In this document: positions 16,844 to 53,040 of the stretch, piece by piece | Layout: each line of letters opens with the position of its first letter | Numbering within the stretch: position 1 is the first letter of the stretch | Sequence record: NC_017969.1 | From: Escherichia phage vB_EcoS_AKFV33 | Strand: one strand, 5' to 3' | DNA length: 64,000 nt | Notes under the pieces: model-generated | Databases searched by the model: none | What the model was told of the DNA's origin: nothing | Seen by the model: the letters and a program-made list of their open reading frames with translations, nothing else | Program-made: the position numbers and the translations under genes

Positions 16844-16872
16844 TTGCTTTCAGGAAAATTTTTCTGTATAAT
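16844..16872 (+). promoter_or_regulatory. T5 early promoter, PN25-like
   Basis: TTGCTT, 17 nt, TATAAT, then AGATTCATAAATTTGAGAGAGGAGTTTAAATATG; from memory this matches the classical T5 PN25 promoter and its leader nearly base for base. Confidence 0.85.
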
Positions 16873-16903
16873 AGATTCATAAATTTGAGAGAGGAGTTTA
16901 AAT

Positions 16904-18402: not shown

Positions 18403-18699
18403 ATGACCAAAGCTGAAATTATCGCACAATGTGAAAAATTTGGTGAGTTTTATCTTCATTACGAGAAACTTCGTCAGAAAGGAACCACGTACCTTCAGGG
18501 TACGATGGAATTTGATCCAGCCCAAGATAAATATCTAGCTGAGCGTATTAAACGTGAACGTATTCGTAAAGCGAAAGATGATGAGATCCTTGTCTTCTCT
18601 CGTACTAATGATAGCTTCCGTTTTATTCCTGTCGAGAAAGTCCGTCGTGTGACCAGCCTCCAATCAGAGTTAGATCGTGCTTCTCCAGTAGGCCGATAA
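18403..18699 (+). CDS. hypothetical protein
   Basis: 98 aa; AAAGGAACA ribosome-binding site; followed by a terminator. Confidence 0.5.
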   Translation: MTKAEIIAQCEKFGEFYLHYEKLRQKGTTYLQGTMEFDPAQDKYLAERIKRERIRKAKDDEILVFSRTNDSFRFIPVEKVRRVTSLQSELDRASPVGR

Positions 18700-18709
18700 G
18701 AAACCAATT

Positions 18710-18730
18710 AGCCCCTATATGGGGCTTTTT
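18710..18730 (+). terminator. rho-independent terminator
   Basis: GCCCC-TATAT-GGGGC hairpin followed by TTTTT. Confidence 0.75.
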
Positions 18731-18749
18731 GTGTATTTGGGATATGTAA

Positions 18750-19058
18750 ATGAGCGAACAGGTAAATCAAAACTATGAAGGACACGTTGATGACCAGTCC
18801 ATCATACTTTGGGAGAAGGAGGGGGAACAAGTAAGATTAACAGTATCTGAATTTCGTGGGAATCTATACATGGGTATTCGTTACTGGCTTCTTGATATTA
18901 ATGATGAATGGTTTCCAACGAAATCTGGCTTCTCTTTTCCTTACACCCTAGAAACAACATCACAGCTTTTCTATGCGTTTACACAGATTCTTAGCGAATC
19001 TGAGGTTTTACATGAAGTACAGAAACGAGCTGAAGAACTCAAAGCCAAGAATGCCTAG
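18750..19058 (+). CDS. hypothetical protein
   Basis: 102 aa. Confidence 0.45.
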   Translation: MSEQVNQNYEGHVDDQSIILWEKEGEQVRLTVSEFRGNLYMGIRYWLLDINDEWFPTKSGFSFPYTLETTSQLFYAFTQILSESEVLHEVQKRAEELKAKNA

Positions 19059-19072
19059 TTCTTGGCTTTTTC
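19044..19072 (+). terminator. rho-independent terminator overlapping the stop codon
   Basis: GCCAAGA / TCTTGGC stem followed by TTTTTC. Confidence 0.65.
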
Positions 19073-19085
19073 TTTATAAATGTAC

Positions 19086-19114
19086 TTGCTTTCAACTCAG
19101 TTTTGTTATATAAT
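19086..19114 (+). promoter_or_regulatory. T5-type early promoter (TTGCTT-17-TATAAT)
   Basis: Consensus elements upstream of ligA. Confidence 0.75.
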
Positions 19115-19145
19115 ATTTATATAAATTAACGAGAGATATAAATAA

Positions 19146-20117
19146 ATGACTAATGTAAAAGAATTTATTAAACGCTGTCAAGAAGCATATTATCAAGGTA
19201 TGTCTTTAATCTCTGATGAGGAGTATGATTGCCTGGTAAAACGCTTCCCATTAGAAGAAGAGATCGGACCTAAGGGTGATATTCCACATCTATATCGTAT
19301 GTATTCTTTACAGAAAGTTTATTATAATCGTGGAGATAAACCCCCATTTAACCCATTAGGTCAGGTAGAAACTGATAAGTTAGATGGTTGTGCGATTTCT
19401 CTGTTATATATTAATGGCGAATTTGTTCAAGCACTAACTCGTGGTAATGGTATTCTAGGGAATGATGTCACAAGCAACGTAAGATTGCTGAACATCCCTC
19501 AAAAGATTTCCCAAAAAGTACCTACTCAAATCACTGGTGAAGTTCTAATTACAAAAGAAGTAGAAAATAAACGTAACTTTGCCTCTGGTGCTATTAACCT
19601 CAAAGATAGCGATGATTTCGTACAACGTATCGGGGAAGGTGGTTTAATCTTCGTTGCATACGGTATCCAGTGTTCTGCTGAATCTGTAGGTATTACAGAA
19701 ACGTATTTAAAAGATATGCTTTGGCTAGAGAATGAGAACTTCTTAACAGTTGTTAATGTGCGTTCCTTCTTTAAATGGATTCCGACGGACGGTAAAGTTG
19801 TTCGTATTAATGATAACAACAAATTCTTCCGTGAAGGCTGGACTAATAAATTCCCTCGTGGAGCATTCGCTATTAAAGAGGATGAAGAAGGCGAGATTAC
19901 AACTCTTACTAAAGTTGAATGGCAGGTAGGAGCTTCTGGTAAAGTAACTCCAGTTGGTTATTTCGAACCGGTAATTATTGATGATGCTACAATTGTTAAA
20001 GCGACTCTTAATAACGTTGATTATATTAACTCTCTTGATCTAGAGATCGGTTGCCAGATTCGAGTGATTCGTGCTGGTGGTGTAATCCCGTGCATAGTAG
20101 AGCGAGTATATGATTAA
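19146..20117 (+). CDS. ligA: NAD-dependent DNA ligase, N-terminal part (Ia, adenylation and OB domains)
   Basis: 323 aa; N-terminal ISDEEYD-type Ia motif, KLDG adenylation lysine motif, OB-fold-like C-terminus; ends exactly at the domain boundary before the zinc finger. Confidence 0.85.
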   Translation: MTNVKEFIKRCQEAYYQGMSLISDEEYDCLVKRFPLEEEIGPKGDIPHLYRMYSLQKVYYNRGDKPPFNPLGQVETDKLDGCAISLLYINGEFVQALTRGNGILGNDVTSNVRLLNIPQKISQKVPTQITGEVLITKEVENKRNFASGAINLKDSDDFVQRIGEGGLIFVAYGIQCSAESVGITETYLKDMLWLENENFLTVVNVRSFFKWIPTDGKVVRINDNNKFFREGWTNKFPRGAFAIKEDEEGEITTLTKVEWQVGASGKVTPVGYFEPVIIDDATIVKATLNNVDYINSLDLEIGCQIRVIRAGGVIPCIVERVYD

Positions 20118-20167
20118 TACATAACCCTTTGCTACCCATCTACCATATAGGAATTATAAAGTGGTTA

Positions 20168-20196
20168 TTGACATTTTCGCCGCTTAGGTATATACT
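20168..20196 (+). promoter_or_regulatory. sigma70 promoter (TTGACA-17-TATACT) inside the ligase split
   Basis: Consensus -35 with 17 nt spacing in the 199 bp spacer between the ligase parts. Confidence 0.65.
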
Positions 20197-20260
20197 ATTA
20201 TCATTCAGTTGAGGGATAGAAAGTTATGGCGAGGGTAAGCAAAGTTAGTTAAAATTGTAG

Positions 20261-20289
20261 TTGCTAAATGCTTAAATACTTGCTATAAT
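20261..20289 (+). promoter_or_regulatory. T5-type early promoter (TTGCTA-17-TATAAT)
   Basis: Second promoter in the spacer, directly upstream of the second ligase ORF. Confidence 0.65.
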
Positions 20290-20316
20290 ATTTATATAAA
20301 TTGATAAGGAAGAAAT

Positions 20317-21090
20317 TTGATGAAAATCGAAATTCCAACACAATGTCCCTCTTGTGGTTCTAAGCTAGATCTTGTCAACGGACAATTATTCTGTCGGAAT
20401 AAGTCCAACTGTCCAGCGCAATCAAGTAAGTTAATTGAGAACTTCTGTACAAAAATGAAGTTAAAGGGCTTTGGTCCAAAAACTATTGAGAAGCTGGAGC
20501 TGACGAAGATTTCAGAACTATTTTACCTAACCGAAGAAGATTTGGTTAGAGCCGTGGGTAGCAAGGTTGCCGCTAAGTTAATTAGCGAATTAAATACTAA
20601 AGTTCGCGGAGACATTGACTTTGGTTCAGTTCTCGGTTCTTTAGGAATCCCTCTAATTGGAGAGGTTGCAGCAAAGAAATTATCCCAAAATTGCACTAGC
20701 TTCCACGATGTGAAGGCTGACGGCAAGGCTGGAGAAAATTATAAAGCCTGGCTAAATTCCCCACAGGGCAAGGATGTTATCGAATTACCGTGGAAATTCT
20801 CAACTGGTGCTAAAACTAAAACCGTCGTTACTGATGATTTAGTTGCCCAGCCAAATGGAATCGCGGTATGTATTACCGGATCTTTGCAAGATTTTGCAAA
20901 TCGAACGGATGCAACAAACTATTTAGAAGGTCTAGGATACACGGTTAAGAAATCCGTTACCAAAGACGTAAAATACCTGATCTGTGAGGATGAATCAAAA
21001 CGTTCTTCCTCATCTTATAAGAAAGCCGAAACGAATGGGATAGAAATCCTGTCGATTAAAGAACTATTGGAGAAAAATAATAATGTCTAA
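20317..21090 (+). CDS. ligB: NAD-dependent DNA ligase, C-terminal part (zinc finger, HhH, BRCT)
   Basis: 257 aa; Cys4 zinc finger (CPSCGS...CRNKSNC), helix-hairpin-helix LKGFGPKTIEKL, BRCT-like C-terminus. Confidence 0.8.
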   Translation: MMKIEIPTQCPSCGSKLDLVNGQLFCRNKSNCPAQSSKLIENFCTKMKLKGFGPKTIEKLELTKISELFYLTEEDLVRAVGSKVAAKLISELNTKVRGDIDFGSVLGSLGIPLIGEVAAKKLSQNCTSFHDVKADGKAGENYKAWLNSPQGKDVIELPWKFSTGAKTKTVVTDDLVAQPNGIAVCITGSLQDFANRTDATNYLEGLGYTVKKSVTKDVKYLICEDESKRSSSSYKKAETNGIEILSIKELLEKNNNV

Positions 21091-21850
21091 ACTGAACTGG
21101 AACGTAGAAGGTGTAACCGAGTCTCTGAAAGCAAAAGCCACTGCTCTGGGTGTTTCTGTAATCTCTCAAGAACAAGTAGCCGCTATCGCTGCTGAACTGG
21201 CTGCTGAAACTGGCAAAGATGTTACCGCTCGCTCTGTTGGCTCTAAACTGCGTAAAGAAGGTTTTGAAGTACAGAAAGCTAACGAAGTACAGAAATCCCC
21301 GTGGACTCCTGAGCAGGAAGCTGAACTGGTTGATTTCCTGAACGCTCATGCTGGTCAGTATACCTATGCTGAAATCGCTGCTGCTGTAGCTGGTGGTCAG
21401 TTCGGTGCTAAGCAGGTACAGGGTAAGATTCTGAGCCTGGAAATGACCGCTTCTGTTAAGCCAACCGAAAAAGCTGCTGCTGTTCGTTCCTTCACTCCGG
21501 ATGAAGAAACTGATTTTGTTAATCAGGTTGTTGCTGGCGCTACTATTGAAGCTATCGCTGCTCACTTCGGTCGTAATATCAAGCAGATCCGTGGTAAAGC
21601 TCTGAGTTTGCTTCGTGAAGGTCGTATCGCTGCTATGCCGGTACAGGAAACTTCAAGTGCTAAAACTCGTGAAGATCTGTTAGAAGGTCTGGATCTGGTT
21701 AACATGACTGTTGCTGAGATCGCTGAGAAAACTGGTAAGTCTGAGCGCGGTGTTAAATCTATGCTGTCTCGTCGTGGTCTGGTTGCTAAGGACTATGATG
21801 GTGCCGCTAAGCGTGCTAAACTGGATGCAAAAGCTGCGGCTGCTGAATAA
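21083..21850 (+). CDS. Ala-rich protein with four tandem HTH-like repeats (abundant early DNA-binding protein candidate)
   Basis: 255 aa; four repeats of the form xTxAEIAxxxGxxxxxVxGKxLSxxxxG; codon usage strongly biased to high-expression codons. Confidence 0.55.
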   Translation: MSKLNWNVEGVTESLKAKATALGVSVISQEQVAAIAAELAAETGKDVTARSVGSKLRKEGFEVQKANEVQKSPWTPEQEAELVDFLNAHAGQYTYAEIAAAVAGGQFGAKQVQGKILSLEMTASVKPTEKAAAVRSFTPDEETDFVNQVVAGATIEAIAAHFGRNIKQIRGKALSLLREGRIAAMPVQETSSAKTREDLLEGLDLVNMTVAEIAEKTGKSERGVKSMLSRRGLVAKDYDGAAKRAKLDAKAAAAE

Positions 21851-21867: not shown

Positions 21868-21899
21868 AAGGGGAGGGGGCTATGCTCCTTCCCCTTTTT
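21868..21899 (+). terminator. rho-independent terminator
   Basis: AAGGGGA...TCCCCTT stem followed by TTTTT. Confidence 0.7.
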
Positions 21900-52554: not shown

Positions 52555-53040
52555 TTATCTGCGAAGTGACCTACGTGGAGGCTGATACCTCACTGTTACA
52601 TTTATTTCTGCTAAACCATATGGGGCCAGTAGACCCTCATCTGTACTAACTGATGTAATGATCATATCAGTTGCCTCACATGGGAAGGTCGATCCATTAG
52701 GTTTACTAACAGTATATTCTAAATTTCCACCTGTGTCAATAACGGTTTTTATATCCGCTACGAGTTTTTCAAGTTGCTCTTGAATGTCTGTTTTCTCTTT
52801 ATCATACACCAGGATAGGAAGTTCTAAAAACATCCACTGTTGACCTGAGGGAAGATACTGCCCAGTTTCAGTTCCGATATGAACTGCCACATAAGGAAAC
52901 TCTCGTATTTCCTCAAATTTATAAGTTTGACGAGAAACGTTTCCATATAGGTTATTAAAATATTCGTCAGGTTGAGAACCGTCCAACTGTTTAGATATAC
53001 GGTCAACCAGAGCTTGTGCAATACTTGTTCTATGATCCAT
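52555..53040 (-). CDS. tail terminator / tail completion protein candidate
   Basis: 161 aa; position between head-completion genes and the tail tube. Confidence 0.35.
   Translation of the reverse strand: MDHRTSIAQALVDRISKQLDGSQPDEYFNNLYGNVSRQTYKFEEIREFPYVAVHIGTETGQYLPSGQQWMFLELPILVYDKEKTDIQEQLEKLVADIKTVIDTGGNLEYTVSKPNGSTFPCEATDMIITSVSTDEGLLAPYGLAEINVTVRYQPPRRSLRR

Follow-up and report, generated by a model that had tools for sequence, protein, structure and literature searches.

The window analysed here, a 64,000-nt stretch of Escherichia phage vB_EcoS_AKFV33 (NC_017969.1), encodes an NAD+-dependent DNA ligase as two adjacent genes, ligA and ligB, which are followed by a D5-like regulator gene and bounded on both sides by predicted intrinsic terminators (Table 1). 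The window is 97-98% identical in DNA sequence to many T5-like phages, in whose records the two genes are labelled ligA/ligB or subunit A/B, and we put at about 90% the probability that its source is a T5-like phage (Tequintavirus) and that the feature is the known heterodimeric ligase ligA/ligB. The genes are essentially those of T5 itself (LigA/LigB, YP_006944/YP_006945, AAU05253/AAU05254): lengths, break point, spacer, and neighbours are all equal, leaving only strain-level differences, and in both phages a PC4-like regulator lies upstream and D5 and DnaB downstream. One difference from T5_ev212 and several others is that the window does not have the 90-aa ORF (phrog_35018) found there between the ligA promoter and ligA.

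Table 1. Predicted features of the ligA-ligB locus (positions in the window)
Feature	Position	Strand	Description and basis
Intrinsic terminator	19041..19069	+	Ends the preceding transcription unit, ahead of the ligA promoter; 12-bp stem then T-run; BB1 annotates an equivalent
ligA promoter	19086..19114	+	T5-early type, TTGCTT-17-TATAAT then ATTTATATAAATT; read from sequence
ligA	19146..20117	+	323 aa, adenylation + OB domains; ORF, Pfam, PDB match; subunit A in GenBank relatives
Left, variable part of spacer	20118..20160		Insertion site in relatives; pi = 0.039 vs 0.003-0.007 elsewhere in spacer
P1, distal promoter	20168..20196	+	TTGACA-17-TATACT, 11/12, context GTTATTGACA..TATACT; promoter scan
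Conserved initial transcribed region of P1	20197..20221	+	G-rich, TTGAGGGA core; identical in T5-like and Klebsiella phages
P2, proximal promoter	20261..20289	+	TTGCTA-17-TATAAT, 10/12, extended -10 TGcTATAAT, ATATT discriminator; promoter scan
Shine-Dalgarno for ligB	20306..20312	+	AAGGAAG, ~8-9 nt before ATG 20320; read from sequence
ligB	20320..21090	+	256 aa, Cys4 zinc finger + HhH + BRCT; ORF, Pfam, PDB match; subunit B in GenBank relatives
D5-like DNA-binding/transcription regulator gene	21083..21850	+	PHROG phrog_323 "transcriptional regulator, D5-like", 1.4e-71
Strong intrinsic terminator	21868..21896	+	Ends the ligA-ligB-D5 unit; 13-bp stem, 8 GC pairs, T-run; BB1 annotates an equivalent

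The split T5 ligase is credited to Wang et al. 2005 in PMC1684257, and the T5 enzyme is entered as ligA/ligB in both PMC3632103 and PMC4319617. The two-piece ligase of the window is real and, judged from its sequence, would be functional, and it is already known: having been in the literature since 2005, with subunits A and B routinely annotated, it adds little as a discovery.

The domains of the enzyme are divided cleanly between the two chains. LigA contains the adenylation domain (DNA_ligase_aden, PF01653, 7.6e-24) and the OB domain (DNA_ligase_OB, PF03120, 3.8e-22, residues 252-321), while the Cys4 zinc finger, HhH, and BRCT domains reside on the separate LigB chain, where Pfam detects BRCT at 8.8e-8 along with HhH. 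In PDB alignments, LigA residues 214-320 match residues 284-390 of E. coli LigA (2OWO) and LigB residues 3-122 match residues 402-529; LigB also aligns to residues 400-653 of 1DGS. The two proteins therefore flank 2OWO residues 390-402, so that the break falls in the linker between the OB and zinc-finger domains, a stretch that is unconserved and of variable length in alignments with single-chain relatives. Domain order and catalytic motifs in E. coli LigA are those of the phage pair, but the E. coli enzyme is one chain of 671 aa; at 323 + 256 aa the phage enzyme is compact, its Ia-like region is shortened, and the break lies in the linker. Sequence hallmarks of the T5-type split are present: LigA ends in ..RAGGxIPxIV.., LigB starts with M..IP..CPxCGS, the genes are adjacent within a T5-like gene order, and ligB has a promoter, ribosome-binding site, and start of its own. 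In place of the single polypeptide of the LigA family there is a stop codon (20115-20117), a gap of 199-202 bp, and a separate start, which is either a TTG at 20317, giving 257 aa, or the ATG at 20320 used in GenBank relatives, giving 256 aa. By homology, the window ligase is classed as a LigA-family member in a two-chain form.

The adenylation lysine motif K78-L-D80-G81 (KLDG) is invariant in 37 homologues, and in the short N-terminal helices Y15, G18, Y27, and D28 are invariant within AYYxG...EEYD, although the model pLDDT there is only 57-73. This stretch resembles the Ia motif on which E. coli LigA depends, and it may be the N-terminal element that confers NAD+ (NMN) specificity. The LigB N-terminus contributes C9, C12, C25, and C31, invariant across genera; all told, KLDG, the Ia-type Y..EEYD, and the four cysteines are unchanged across genera at 46-73% protein identity. 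Codon diversity in the two halves is 0.16 and 0.09 at third positions and 0.014 and 0.011 at second positions, and both halves are evidently under purifying selection, with catalytic and zinc-binding residues retained.

The predicted ligA promoter belongs to a TTGCTT..TATAAT..ATAAATT family that has 5 members in the window versus 0.33 expected, and it is identical to the ligB promoter P2 over 19-25 nt. It also has ATATT, the discriminator that PMC7472727 gives for early promoters of T5. The ligA-ligB spacer, measuring 199 bp to the TTG and 202 bp to the ATG, holds two further candidates, P1 and P2, the latter with an expected (predicted) transcription start at ~20296. Promoter-like matches as a class are no commoner than expected in this AT-rich stretch (7 versus 8.7), and raw matches therefore prove little. 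The position and core sequence of P1 and P2 are kept across 8 Demerecviridae lineages, however, a degree of conservation for which chance would fail to account. P1 keeps a distance of 125-128 nt from the downstream ligB in T5 as well as in Klebsiella, Proteus, and Vibrio phages and is also found, by alignment, in Providencia phage PR1, and the TTGnTATAAT of P2 is invariant in the 8 lineages. The region transcribed first from P1 retains its GAGGGA/GGGGA/GGGAG core in Providencia and Vibrio phages, and there is no second copy of this element in the window. A mini-ORF behind GAGGGA (MARVSKVS, 20227-20253) was rejected as a gene; it is absent from Klebsiella and Vibrio relatives.

The specified bases of P1 equal those of a site at 52711-52743(-), which we take to be the promoter PJ5. 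This promoter has been reported as a late one (PMC7472727). More broadly, a promoter lies just upstream of ligB in 31/31 scanned gaps, and in the 25 split loci whose best hit was the proximal site (24 of them environmental contigs) a 9-12/12 promoter stands 7-54 nt upstream of the ligB match, the distance being 24-54 nt in all but one. Another promoter, PH207, had no match in the window. A preliminary description of this DNA had recognised two ligase ORFs, a break between the OB and zinc-finger domains, and a spacer bearing two sigma70 promoters; ORF calls, Pfam, and the promoter scan confirm the ORFs and the spacer, the 2OWO alignments bear out the position of the break, and both promoters were found again, near consensus at 11/12 and 10/12.

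The last 8 nt of ligB are also the first 8 nt of D5, this tight packing of ligB and D5 recurs in all relatives, and the two genes are, to judge from their arrangement, co-transcribed. Because no terminator is predicted after ligA in the window, ligA transcripts probably read through into ligB, to go only by that missing prediction; in PR1, by contrast, annotators place a terminator right after ligA. The single Rfam match, SpF51 at 18699-18730, reaches 26.5 bits where the gathering score is 50, and it overlaps a terminator hairpin. The spacer would serve as a conserved regulatory cassette of tandem sigma70 promoters, P1 and P2, together with a ribosome-binding site, and from these predicted promoters transcription would start anew for ligB and for D5, which overlaps it.

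No other DNA of the ligase locus is as conserved as the spacer. Among T5-like phages, pi is 0.003-0.007 over 20161-20319 versus 0.011-0.014 at second codon positions. Relatives show what its variable left end can accommodate: Salmonella phages SP3 and vB_Sen_SG_WM_RUS_R2 have a 218-aa GIY-YIG endonuclease gene in the gap, beginning at the ligA stop, and Proteus and Vibrio relatives have 1-3 small gap ORFs, including a DprA-like gene. Such insertions always lie to the left of the promoter cassette and are additional to it. The SP3 endonuclease sits between the ligA stop and a promoter module of 178 bp that is 98.9% identical to the window, and because this otherwise identical module adjoins it, the endonuclease is an addition rather than a source of the spacer. 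Free-standing homing endonuclease genes of the T4 seg/mob type insert between conserved phage genes, and the SP3 gene, lying in the ligA-ligB gap beside locally diverged ligA sequence, may be likened to them; the SP3 gene is absent from the window and is not the origin of the spacer.

The break occurs at the same linker position in 87/87 related loci, with gaps of 65-1360 bp, and the top 120 LigA homologues contain adenylation and OB domains only, all being 310-337 aa in length except one 240-aa entry labelled partial. By all appearances the split is ancient, common to all Demerecviridae examined and to many environmental relatives, and always accompanied by a gap promoter. Compact single-chain ligases of 555-586 aa do occur in the environmental T5-like phages P0152, P0160, P0173, P0179, P0181, and P0191. 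These are 36-46% identical to window LigA and share the T5 gene order of lig, a D5-like gene (237-253 aa), and DnaB plus DnaG primase where the contig is long enough, with PolA additionally seen for P0152, but the ligase is uninterrupted: a linker of 15-21 aa (up to ~35 aa in P0186) replaces the stop, promoter cassette, and start of T5. The linker codons of P0152 contain TTGAAT-18-TGcTATAAT-ATATT, and this promoter-like sequence may be left over from a gap that was re-fused, or may act as an internal promoter. A rough NJ tree, built from 131 representatives and without the resolution needed to count events, places single-chain forms both basally and nested; the gene may have split once and been re-fused later, or may have split several times independently.

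A homologous enzyme is seen in PDB entries 9HU3 and 9I5I (released 2026), "PR1 phage heterodimeric DNA ligase" on nicked DNA, in which two chains are named as subunits; one of the titles mentions "phage nick sequence". PR1 is Providencia phage vB_PreS_PR1 (Priunavirus, Demerecviridae), and its ligase is an orthologous two-chain enzyme, with the locus layout, break point, and gap promoter seen in the window. Chains A (339 aa) and B (248 aa) align with the window proteins from end to end, LigA at E = 5e-103 to 9hu3 chain A, with 52-53% identity by Foldseek, and LigB at E = 1.4e-81 to chain B, "DNA ligase subunit B". An AlphaFold model of LigA (pLDDT 87) superimposes on 9hu3_A/9i5i_A with TM 0.82-0.85. 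Literature searches on promoter sequences, PDB codes, split or heterodimeric ligases, and the Providencia ligase found no paper on the PR1 structure or on mapping of P1/P2. The preliminary description had presumed two polypeptides that assemble, an idea that selection on both halves, the residues they keep, the separate signals of ligB, and the PR1 heterodimer now support; by analogy with PR1, window LigA and LigB would probably assemble into an active ligase. LigA would be the catalytic half, with its short putative Ia motif, nucleotidyltransferase domain carrying the KLDG lysine, and OB fold, and LigB the DNA-clamping half, with its zinc finger, HhH, and BRCT domains. Together they would close around nicked DNA and seal nicks as single-chain LigA does, the likely substrates being Okazaki junctions and perhaps also the site-specific nicks that the phage itself carries.

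Other explanations of the two-piece gene fare less well. A bare stop codon within a normally single gene could point to a pseudogenising break, or to an assembly or sequencing error, in a phage that uses the host LigA. We give this practically no credence: the break is alike in the 87 loci, which are independent of one another, and GenBank phages share it by the hundreds; purifying selection acts on both halves, whose catalytic and zinc-binding residues do not vary; ligB is equipped with a promoter, ribosome-binding site, and ATG of its own; and a two-chain homologue has been crystallised with nicked DNA. It is likewise extremely improbable that one polypeptide is restored by ribosome bypassing, RNA splicing, or protein trans-splicing. 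Phages do offer precedents in T4 gene 60 bypassing and split inteins, but the gap varies from 65 to 1360 bp and may hold whole genes, the frame relation of the halves is not conserved, neither structured RNA nor an intron signal is found in the spacer, the ends of LigA and LigB have no intein sequences, and the PDB entries show two separate chains named subunits. The preliminary description had further read the spacer as a possible scar left by a lost mobile element, and a homing endonuclease gene, intron, or intein might have first broken the gene. The gap truly receives insertions, from the GIY-YIG genes to the small Proteus and Vibrio ORFs, and the SP3 LigA C-terminus is locally diverged beside its insertion. 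Yet the SP3 endonuclease sits beside an intact promoter module, and a tblastn search of the window with this protein and every gap ORF of the Proteus and Vibrio phages finds nothing in the spacer. Rfam (18600-21600, E <= 10) reports no intron or other RNA family in the spacer, whose RNA fold is not unusual (z = -0.75), and the idea of an intron or structured RNA was dropped. Moreover, environmental gaps of only 65-118 bp are essentially a promoter plus a ribosome-binding site, constraint on the spacer exceeds that on coding sequence, its promoters persist from T5 to Vibrio phages, and LigA and LigB have no intein-like extensions. A scar is thus not supported, and we hold it to be very improbable.

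A more serious proposal, if still an unlikely one, is that the split is mainly regulatory, the cassette uncoupling the dose or timing of ligB-D5 from that of ligA and free LigB acting also as a nick- or DNA-binding protein or a BRCT adaptor. It draws on the promoter in every scanned split gap, the tandem P1/P2 geometry kept family-wide, the late (PJ5) form of P1 set beside the early-type ATATT discriminator of P2 and the ligA promoter, the overlap of D5 with ligB, the "phage nick sequence" of the PDB title, and the strongest promoter-like sites of single-chain relatives, which lie in the linker or the LigB-coding part. Against it, the temporal class of these promoters is read from few bases, and internal promoter-like matches in AT-rich genes may be chance. 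A fuller version, which we consider speculative and rather improbable, would have the split kept, and perhaps first made, because the early replication operon requires a strong promoter cassette at this point, with P2 early-type and P1 PJ5-like late-type setting ligB-D5 apart from ligA in dose or timing; LigB made in excess or later than LigA would have a role of its own, such as sitting on the programmed nicks of the phage or bringing in partners by its BRCT domain, and occasional re-fusions such as P0152 would be the reverse path.

What the locus may usefully offer, read as the known heterodimeric ligase, is its context: a family-wide split with a gap promoter, a constrained tandem-promoter module, a recurrent insertion site for accessory genes, and single-chain relatives in the same gene order. 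Taken together, these features lend themselves naturally to studying how, and for what reason, an essential multi-domain enzyme stays in two pieces.

A two-piece ligase is already known in these phages and is treated as established in the literature: ligA and ligB are listed for the T5 replication region as AAU05253 and AAU05254 (PMC3632103), and ligase A and B subunits are mentioned for a T5-like Salmonella phage (PMC4319617). The 2.3-kb ligase region of the window matches hundreds of T5-like genomes, those of Tequintavirus among them, at 97-98% identity. The additions made here are descriptive, namely a universal promoter in the gap between the two genes, constraint on this spacer, a hot spot for insertions, and the existence of single-chain relatives.

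The first ORF encodes the adenylation and OB domains of an NAD-dependent ligase and the second the HhH and BRCT domains (Pfam). LigB begins MKIEIPTQCPSCGS, and the four cysteines located there are invariant across genera. The ORF list, the raw sequence, the Pfam domains and the Cys4 set thus agree with the preliminary description, which had placed the adenylation/OB and zinc-finger/HhH/BRCT parts on separate ORFs. The ligB start annotated in GenBank relatives is the ATG, and the gap is 199 bp when measured to the TTG or 202 bp to the ATG. In sequence matches to solved structures, LigA 214-320 aligns to residues 284-390 of E. coli LigA (2OWO) and LigB 3-122 to residues 402-529. Given the domain limits of the E. 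coli enzyme, these matches place the cut inside the short linker that joins the OB fold to the zinc finger, just where it had been proposed to lie.

Features of the ligase locus and related promoter sites in the window
Feature	Coordinates	Strand	Details
PN25-like site	16845-16885	+	member of ligA-promoter family
SpF51 sRNA match	18699-18730		26.5 bits; gathering score 50
Bidirectional terminator-like hairpin	18710-18726		
Upstream terminator	19041-19069		flanks ligA-ligB-D5 unit
ligA promoter	19086-19114		
ligA ORF	19146-20117	+	323 aa; ORF list and raw sequence
P1 (distal promoter)	20168-20196		TTGACA-17-TATACT; consensus scan
G-rich element	20197-20221		ATTATCATTCAGTTGAGGGATAGAA
P2 (proximal promoter)	20261-20289		TTGCTA-17-TATAAT, TG-extended; consensus scan
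ligB ORF	20317-21090	+	257 aa from TTG, 256 aa from ATG at 20320; ORF list and raw sequence
D5-like gene	21083-21850	+	
Downstream terminator	21868-21896		flanks ligA-ligB-D5 unit
PJ5-like site	52711-52743	-	

The enzyme had been presumed to be made as two polypeptides that assemble, and this is supported by an orthologue. PDB entries 9HU3 (released 2026-01-14) and 9I5I (released 2026-02-18), one with the phage nick sequence and the other with a random sequence, pair a 339-aa chain A, "DNA ligase (NAD(+))", with a 248-aa chain B, "DNA ligase subunit B". Chain B is 100% identical to the sequence from Providencia phage vB_PreS_PR1, a member of the Demerecviridae whose ligase locus has the same layout as that of the window. 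The titles and chain composition of the two PDB entries show experimentally that in PR1 both chains make up a single enzyme at nicked DNA; a literature search found no publication on either entry. The window proteins match these chains end to end (LigA to chain A, E = 5e-103; LigB to chain B, 1.4e-81), and the window LigA as modelled by AlphaFold (pLDDT 87.3) superimposes on 9hu3_A and 9i5i_A with TM 0.82-0.85. By analogy, the two window polypeptides would assemble in the same way.

Both halves are under selection and the position of the break is old. Relative to T5-like, Klebsiella, Proteus, and Vibrio phages, the window LigA is 51-73% and LigB 46-72% identical, with the KLDG motif, the N-terminal AYYxG..EEYD motif and the Cys4 set invariant in the same comparison. 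Nucleotide diversity at codon positions 1/2/3 among 27 distinct T5-like loci is 0.031/0.014/0.158 for ligA and 0.028/0.011/0.091 for ligB, a pattern that indicates purifying selection on both genes. LigA ends and LigB starts at the same position in 87/87 loci, a set of 7 GenBank phages and 80 IMG/VR contigs that reaches down to 39% identity. The length of the gap varies, from 65-118 bp in most environmental contigs to 199-202 bp in T5-like and Klebsiella phages, 344 bp in a Proteus phage and 449-1360 bp in Vibrio phages. The best 120 LigA homologues from a set of 5.8 billion proteins all consist of adenylation and OB domains only, and are 310-337 aa long except for one 240-aa entry labelled partial.

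Single-chain ligases of 555-586 aa (36-46% identity) were also found by an exhaustive representative search. For six of these the gene order is T5-like: a D5-like gene (237-253 aa) follows in 6/6, the last one cut at the contig end, DnaB and DnaG primase lie further downstream where the contig is long enough, PolA was seen for the environmental phage protein P0152, and a T5 A2-like or PC4-like gene lies upstream of several. In these proteins a linker that is not conserved, 15-21 aa long (~35 aa in P0186), takes the place of the break. Single-chain forms are both basal and nested among split forms in an NJ tree, the resolution of which is too weak for counting split or fusion events. The DNA for the 21-aa linker of P0152 (locus L088, 4952-4990) reads TTGAAT-18-TGcTATAAT-ATATT, a promoter like those in split gaps, and may reflect either re-fusion of a once-split gene or an internal promoter; no such site occurs in the linkers of the other five. 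Four of these five have their sole promoter-like match of at least 10/12 within the LigB-coding part (L090 4992, L092 4177, L093 3231, L095 3355), with none in the LigA part. These sites may point to promoters within the ligase gene that serve the D5-like gene downstream; in such AT-rich DNA they may also have arisen by chance.

The spacer is not neutral filler. Among T5-like phages, pi across 20161-20319 is 0.003-0.007, lower than the second-codon-position values of ligA and ligB, and only the leftmost ~40 bp are variable (pi = 0.039). The two sigma70 promoters that had been reported within it, P1 and P2, were both recovered by a consensus scan. When ~185 bp upstream of ligB were aligned from eight lineages (T5-like, Klebsiella, Providencia, Proteus, and four Vibrio groups), P1 retained an invariant core, TTGAC(A/G)-17-TATA(A/C)T, at a fixed position 125-128 nt before ligB. 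P2 has a TTGC-type -35 (TTGCT/TTGCC; TGCTC in two Vibrio phages) and an invariant TTGnTATAAT in the -10 region, usually with ATT next. All 31 of the split loci scanned have a 9-12/12 promoter site with 17-bp spacing (18 in one) no more than 160 nt upstream of ligB. The best match is proximal in 25/31 loci (24 environmental contigs), 7-54 nt before the ligB match and 24-54 in all but one, and this proximal site is often followed by ATAAATTGA, like T5 early promoters. At the sequence level, the split and its promoters are conserved family-wide. The G-rich element directly downstream of P1 is identical in Klebsiella phages, and Providencia and Vibrio phages retain its GAGGGA/GGGGA core; it resembles a Shine-Dalgarno sequence, but conservation does not extend to the mini-ORF that follows.

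The preliminary description had also suggested that the spacer may be the scar of a lost mobile element. Genes are indeed found in the gap elsewhere. Salmonella phage SP3 carries there a 218-aa gene of GIY-YIG homing-endonuclease type (L032 3184-3840; IMG/VR copy, MG387042) that starts within the last ligA codons, next to a locally diverged LigA C-terminus, and in the collection it is confined to 3 phage records (two SP3 copies and one other Salmonella phage). Proteus and Vibrio gaps hold 1-3 small ORFs (L007 3469-4672, L005 3469-4448, L006 3457-3753, L004 3492-3659), including an 88-aa protein (phrog_7775), a 126-aa protein, a DprA-like protein (phrog_768), and small orphan ORFs. Yet all of these extra genes follow the ligA stop and precede P1 and with it the whole conserved P1/P2 module, and the 178 bp of remaining gap DNA in SP3 are 98.9% identical to the window spacer. 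The window has no detectable remnant of any of these ORFs, and neither Rfam nor folding gave a sign of an intron in the spacer. On this evidence the spacer is a conserved regulatory module, with mobile genes as later additions beside it, and the scar reading is not borne out.

P2 and the ligA promoter share 19-25 identical bases (TATAATATTTATATAAATT...), and the family of the latter has 5 copies in the window versus 0.33 expected. One member is probably the classic T5 promoter PN25, and a minus-strand site is probably PJ5; on these matches, the window takes in the early region of T5 together with part of the late one. P1 has the form GTTATTGACA-N17-TATACT, as does the PJ5-like site. ATATT is present in P2 and the ligA promoter and absent from P1; according to Klimuk et al., it occurs in the discriminator of all T5 early promoters, and PJ5 is a late promoter (PMC7472727). 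Temporal classes of P1 and P2 may be inferred from such likenesses.

No predicted terminator separates ligA from ligB, terminators flank the locus on both sides, and the end of ligB runs 8 nt into the D5-like gene. This is most simply explained by a ligA-ligB-D5 unit in which an internal pair of tandem promoters boosts ligB-D5. In many T5-like phages an uncharacterised 90-aa ORF (phrog_35018, E = 1e-48) separates ligA from its promoter. It is present in T5_ev212 (L001 1646-1918) but not in the window (19115-19145), where the promoter therefore directly abuts ligA, and its absence explains a ~272-bp length difference in several two-piece nucleotide matches. A weak Rfam match to SpF51 sRNA upstream of the locus coincides with a terminator-like hairpin, which almost certainly explains the match by itself.

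Complementary domain sets on two ORFs, separate expression signals for ligB, and purifying selection on both genes can be read directly from the DNA. In this phage LigA would adenylate itself with NAD+, consistent with the finding that LigN truncated at the same boundary still makes enzyme-adenylate (PMC1684257). LigB would supply DNA binding, and the two proteins would close around the nick and then seal it, while P1 and P2 would add ligB-D5 transcription beyond the read-through from the ligA promoter.
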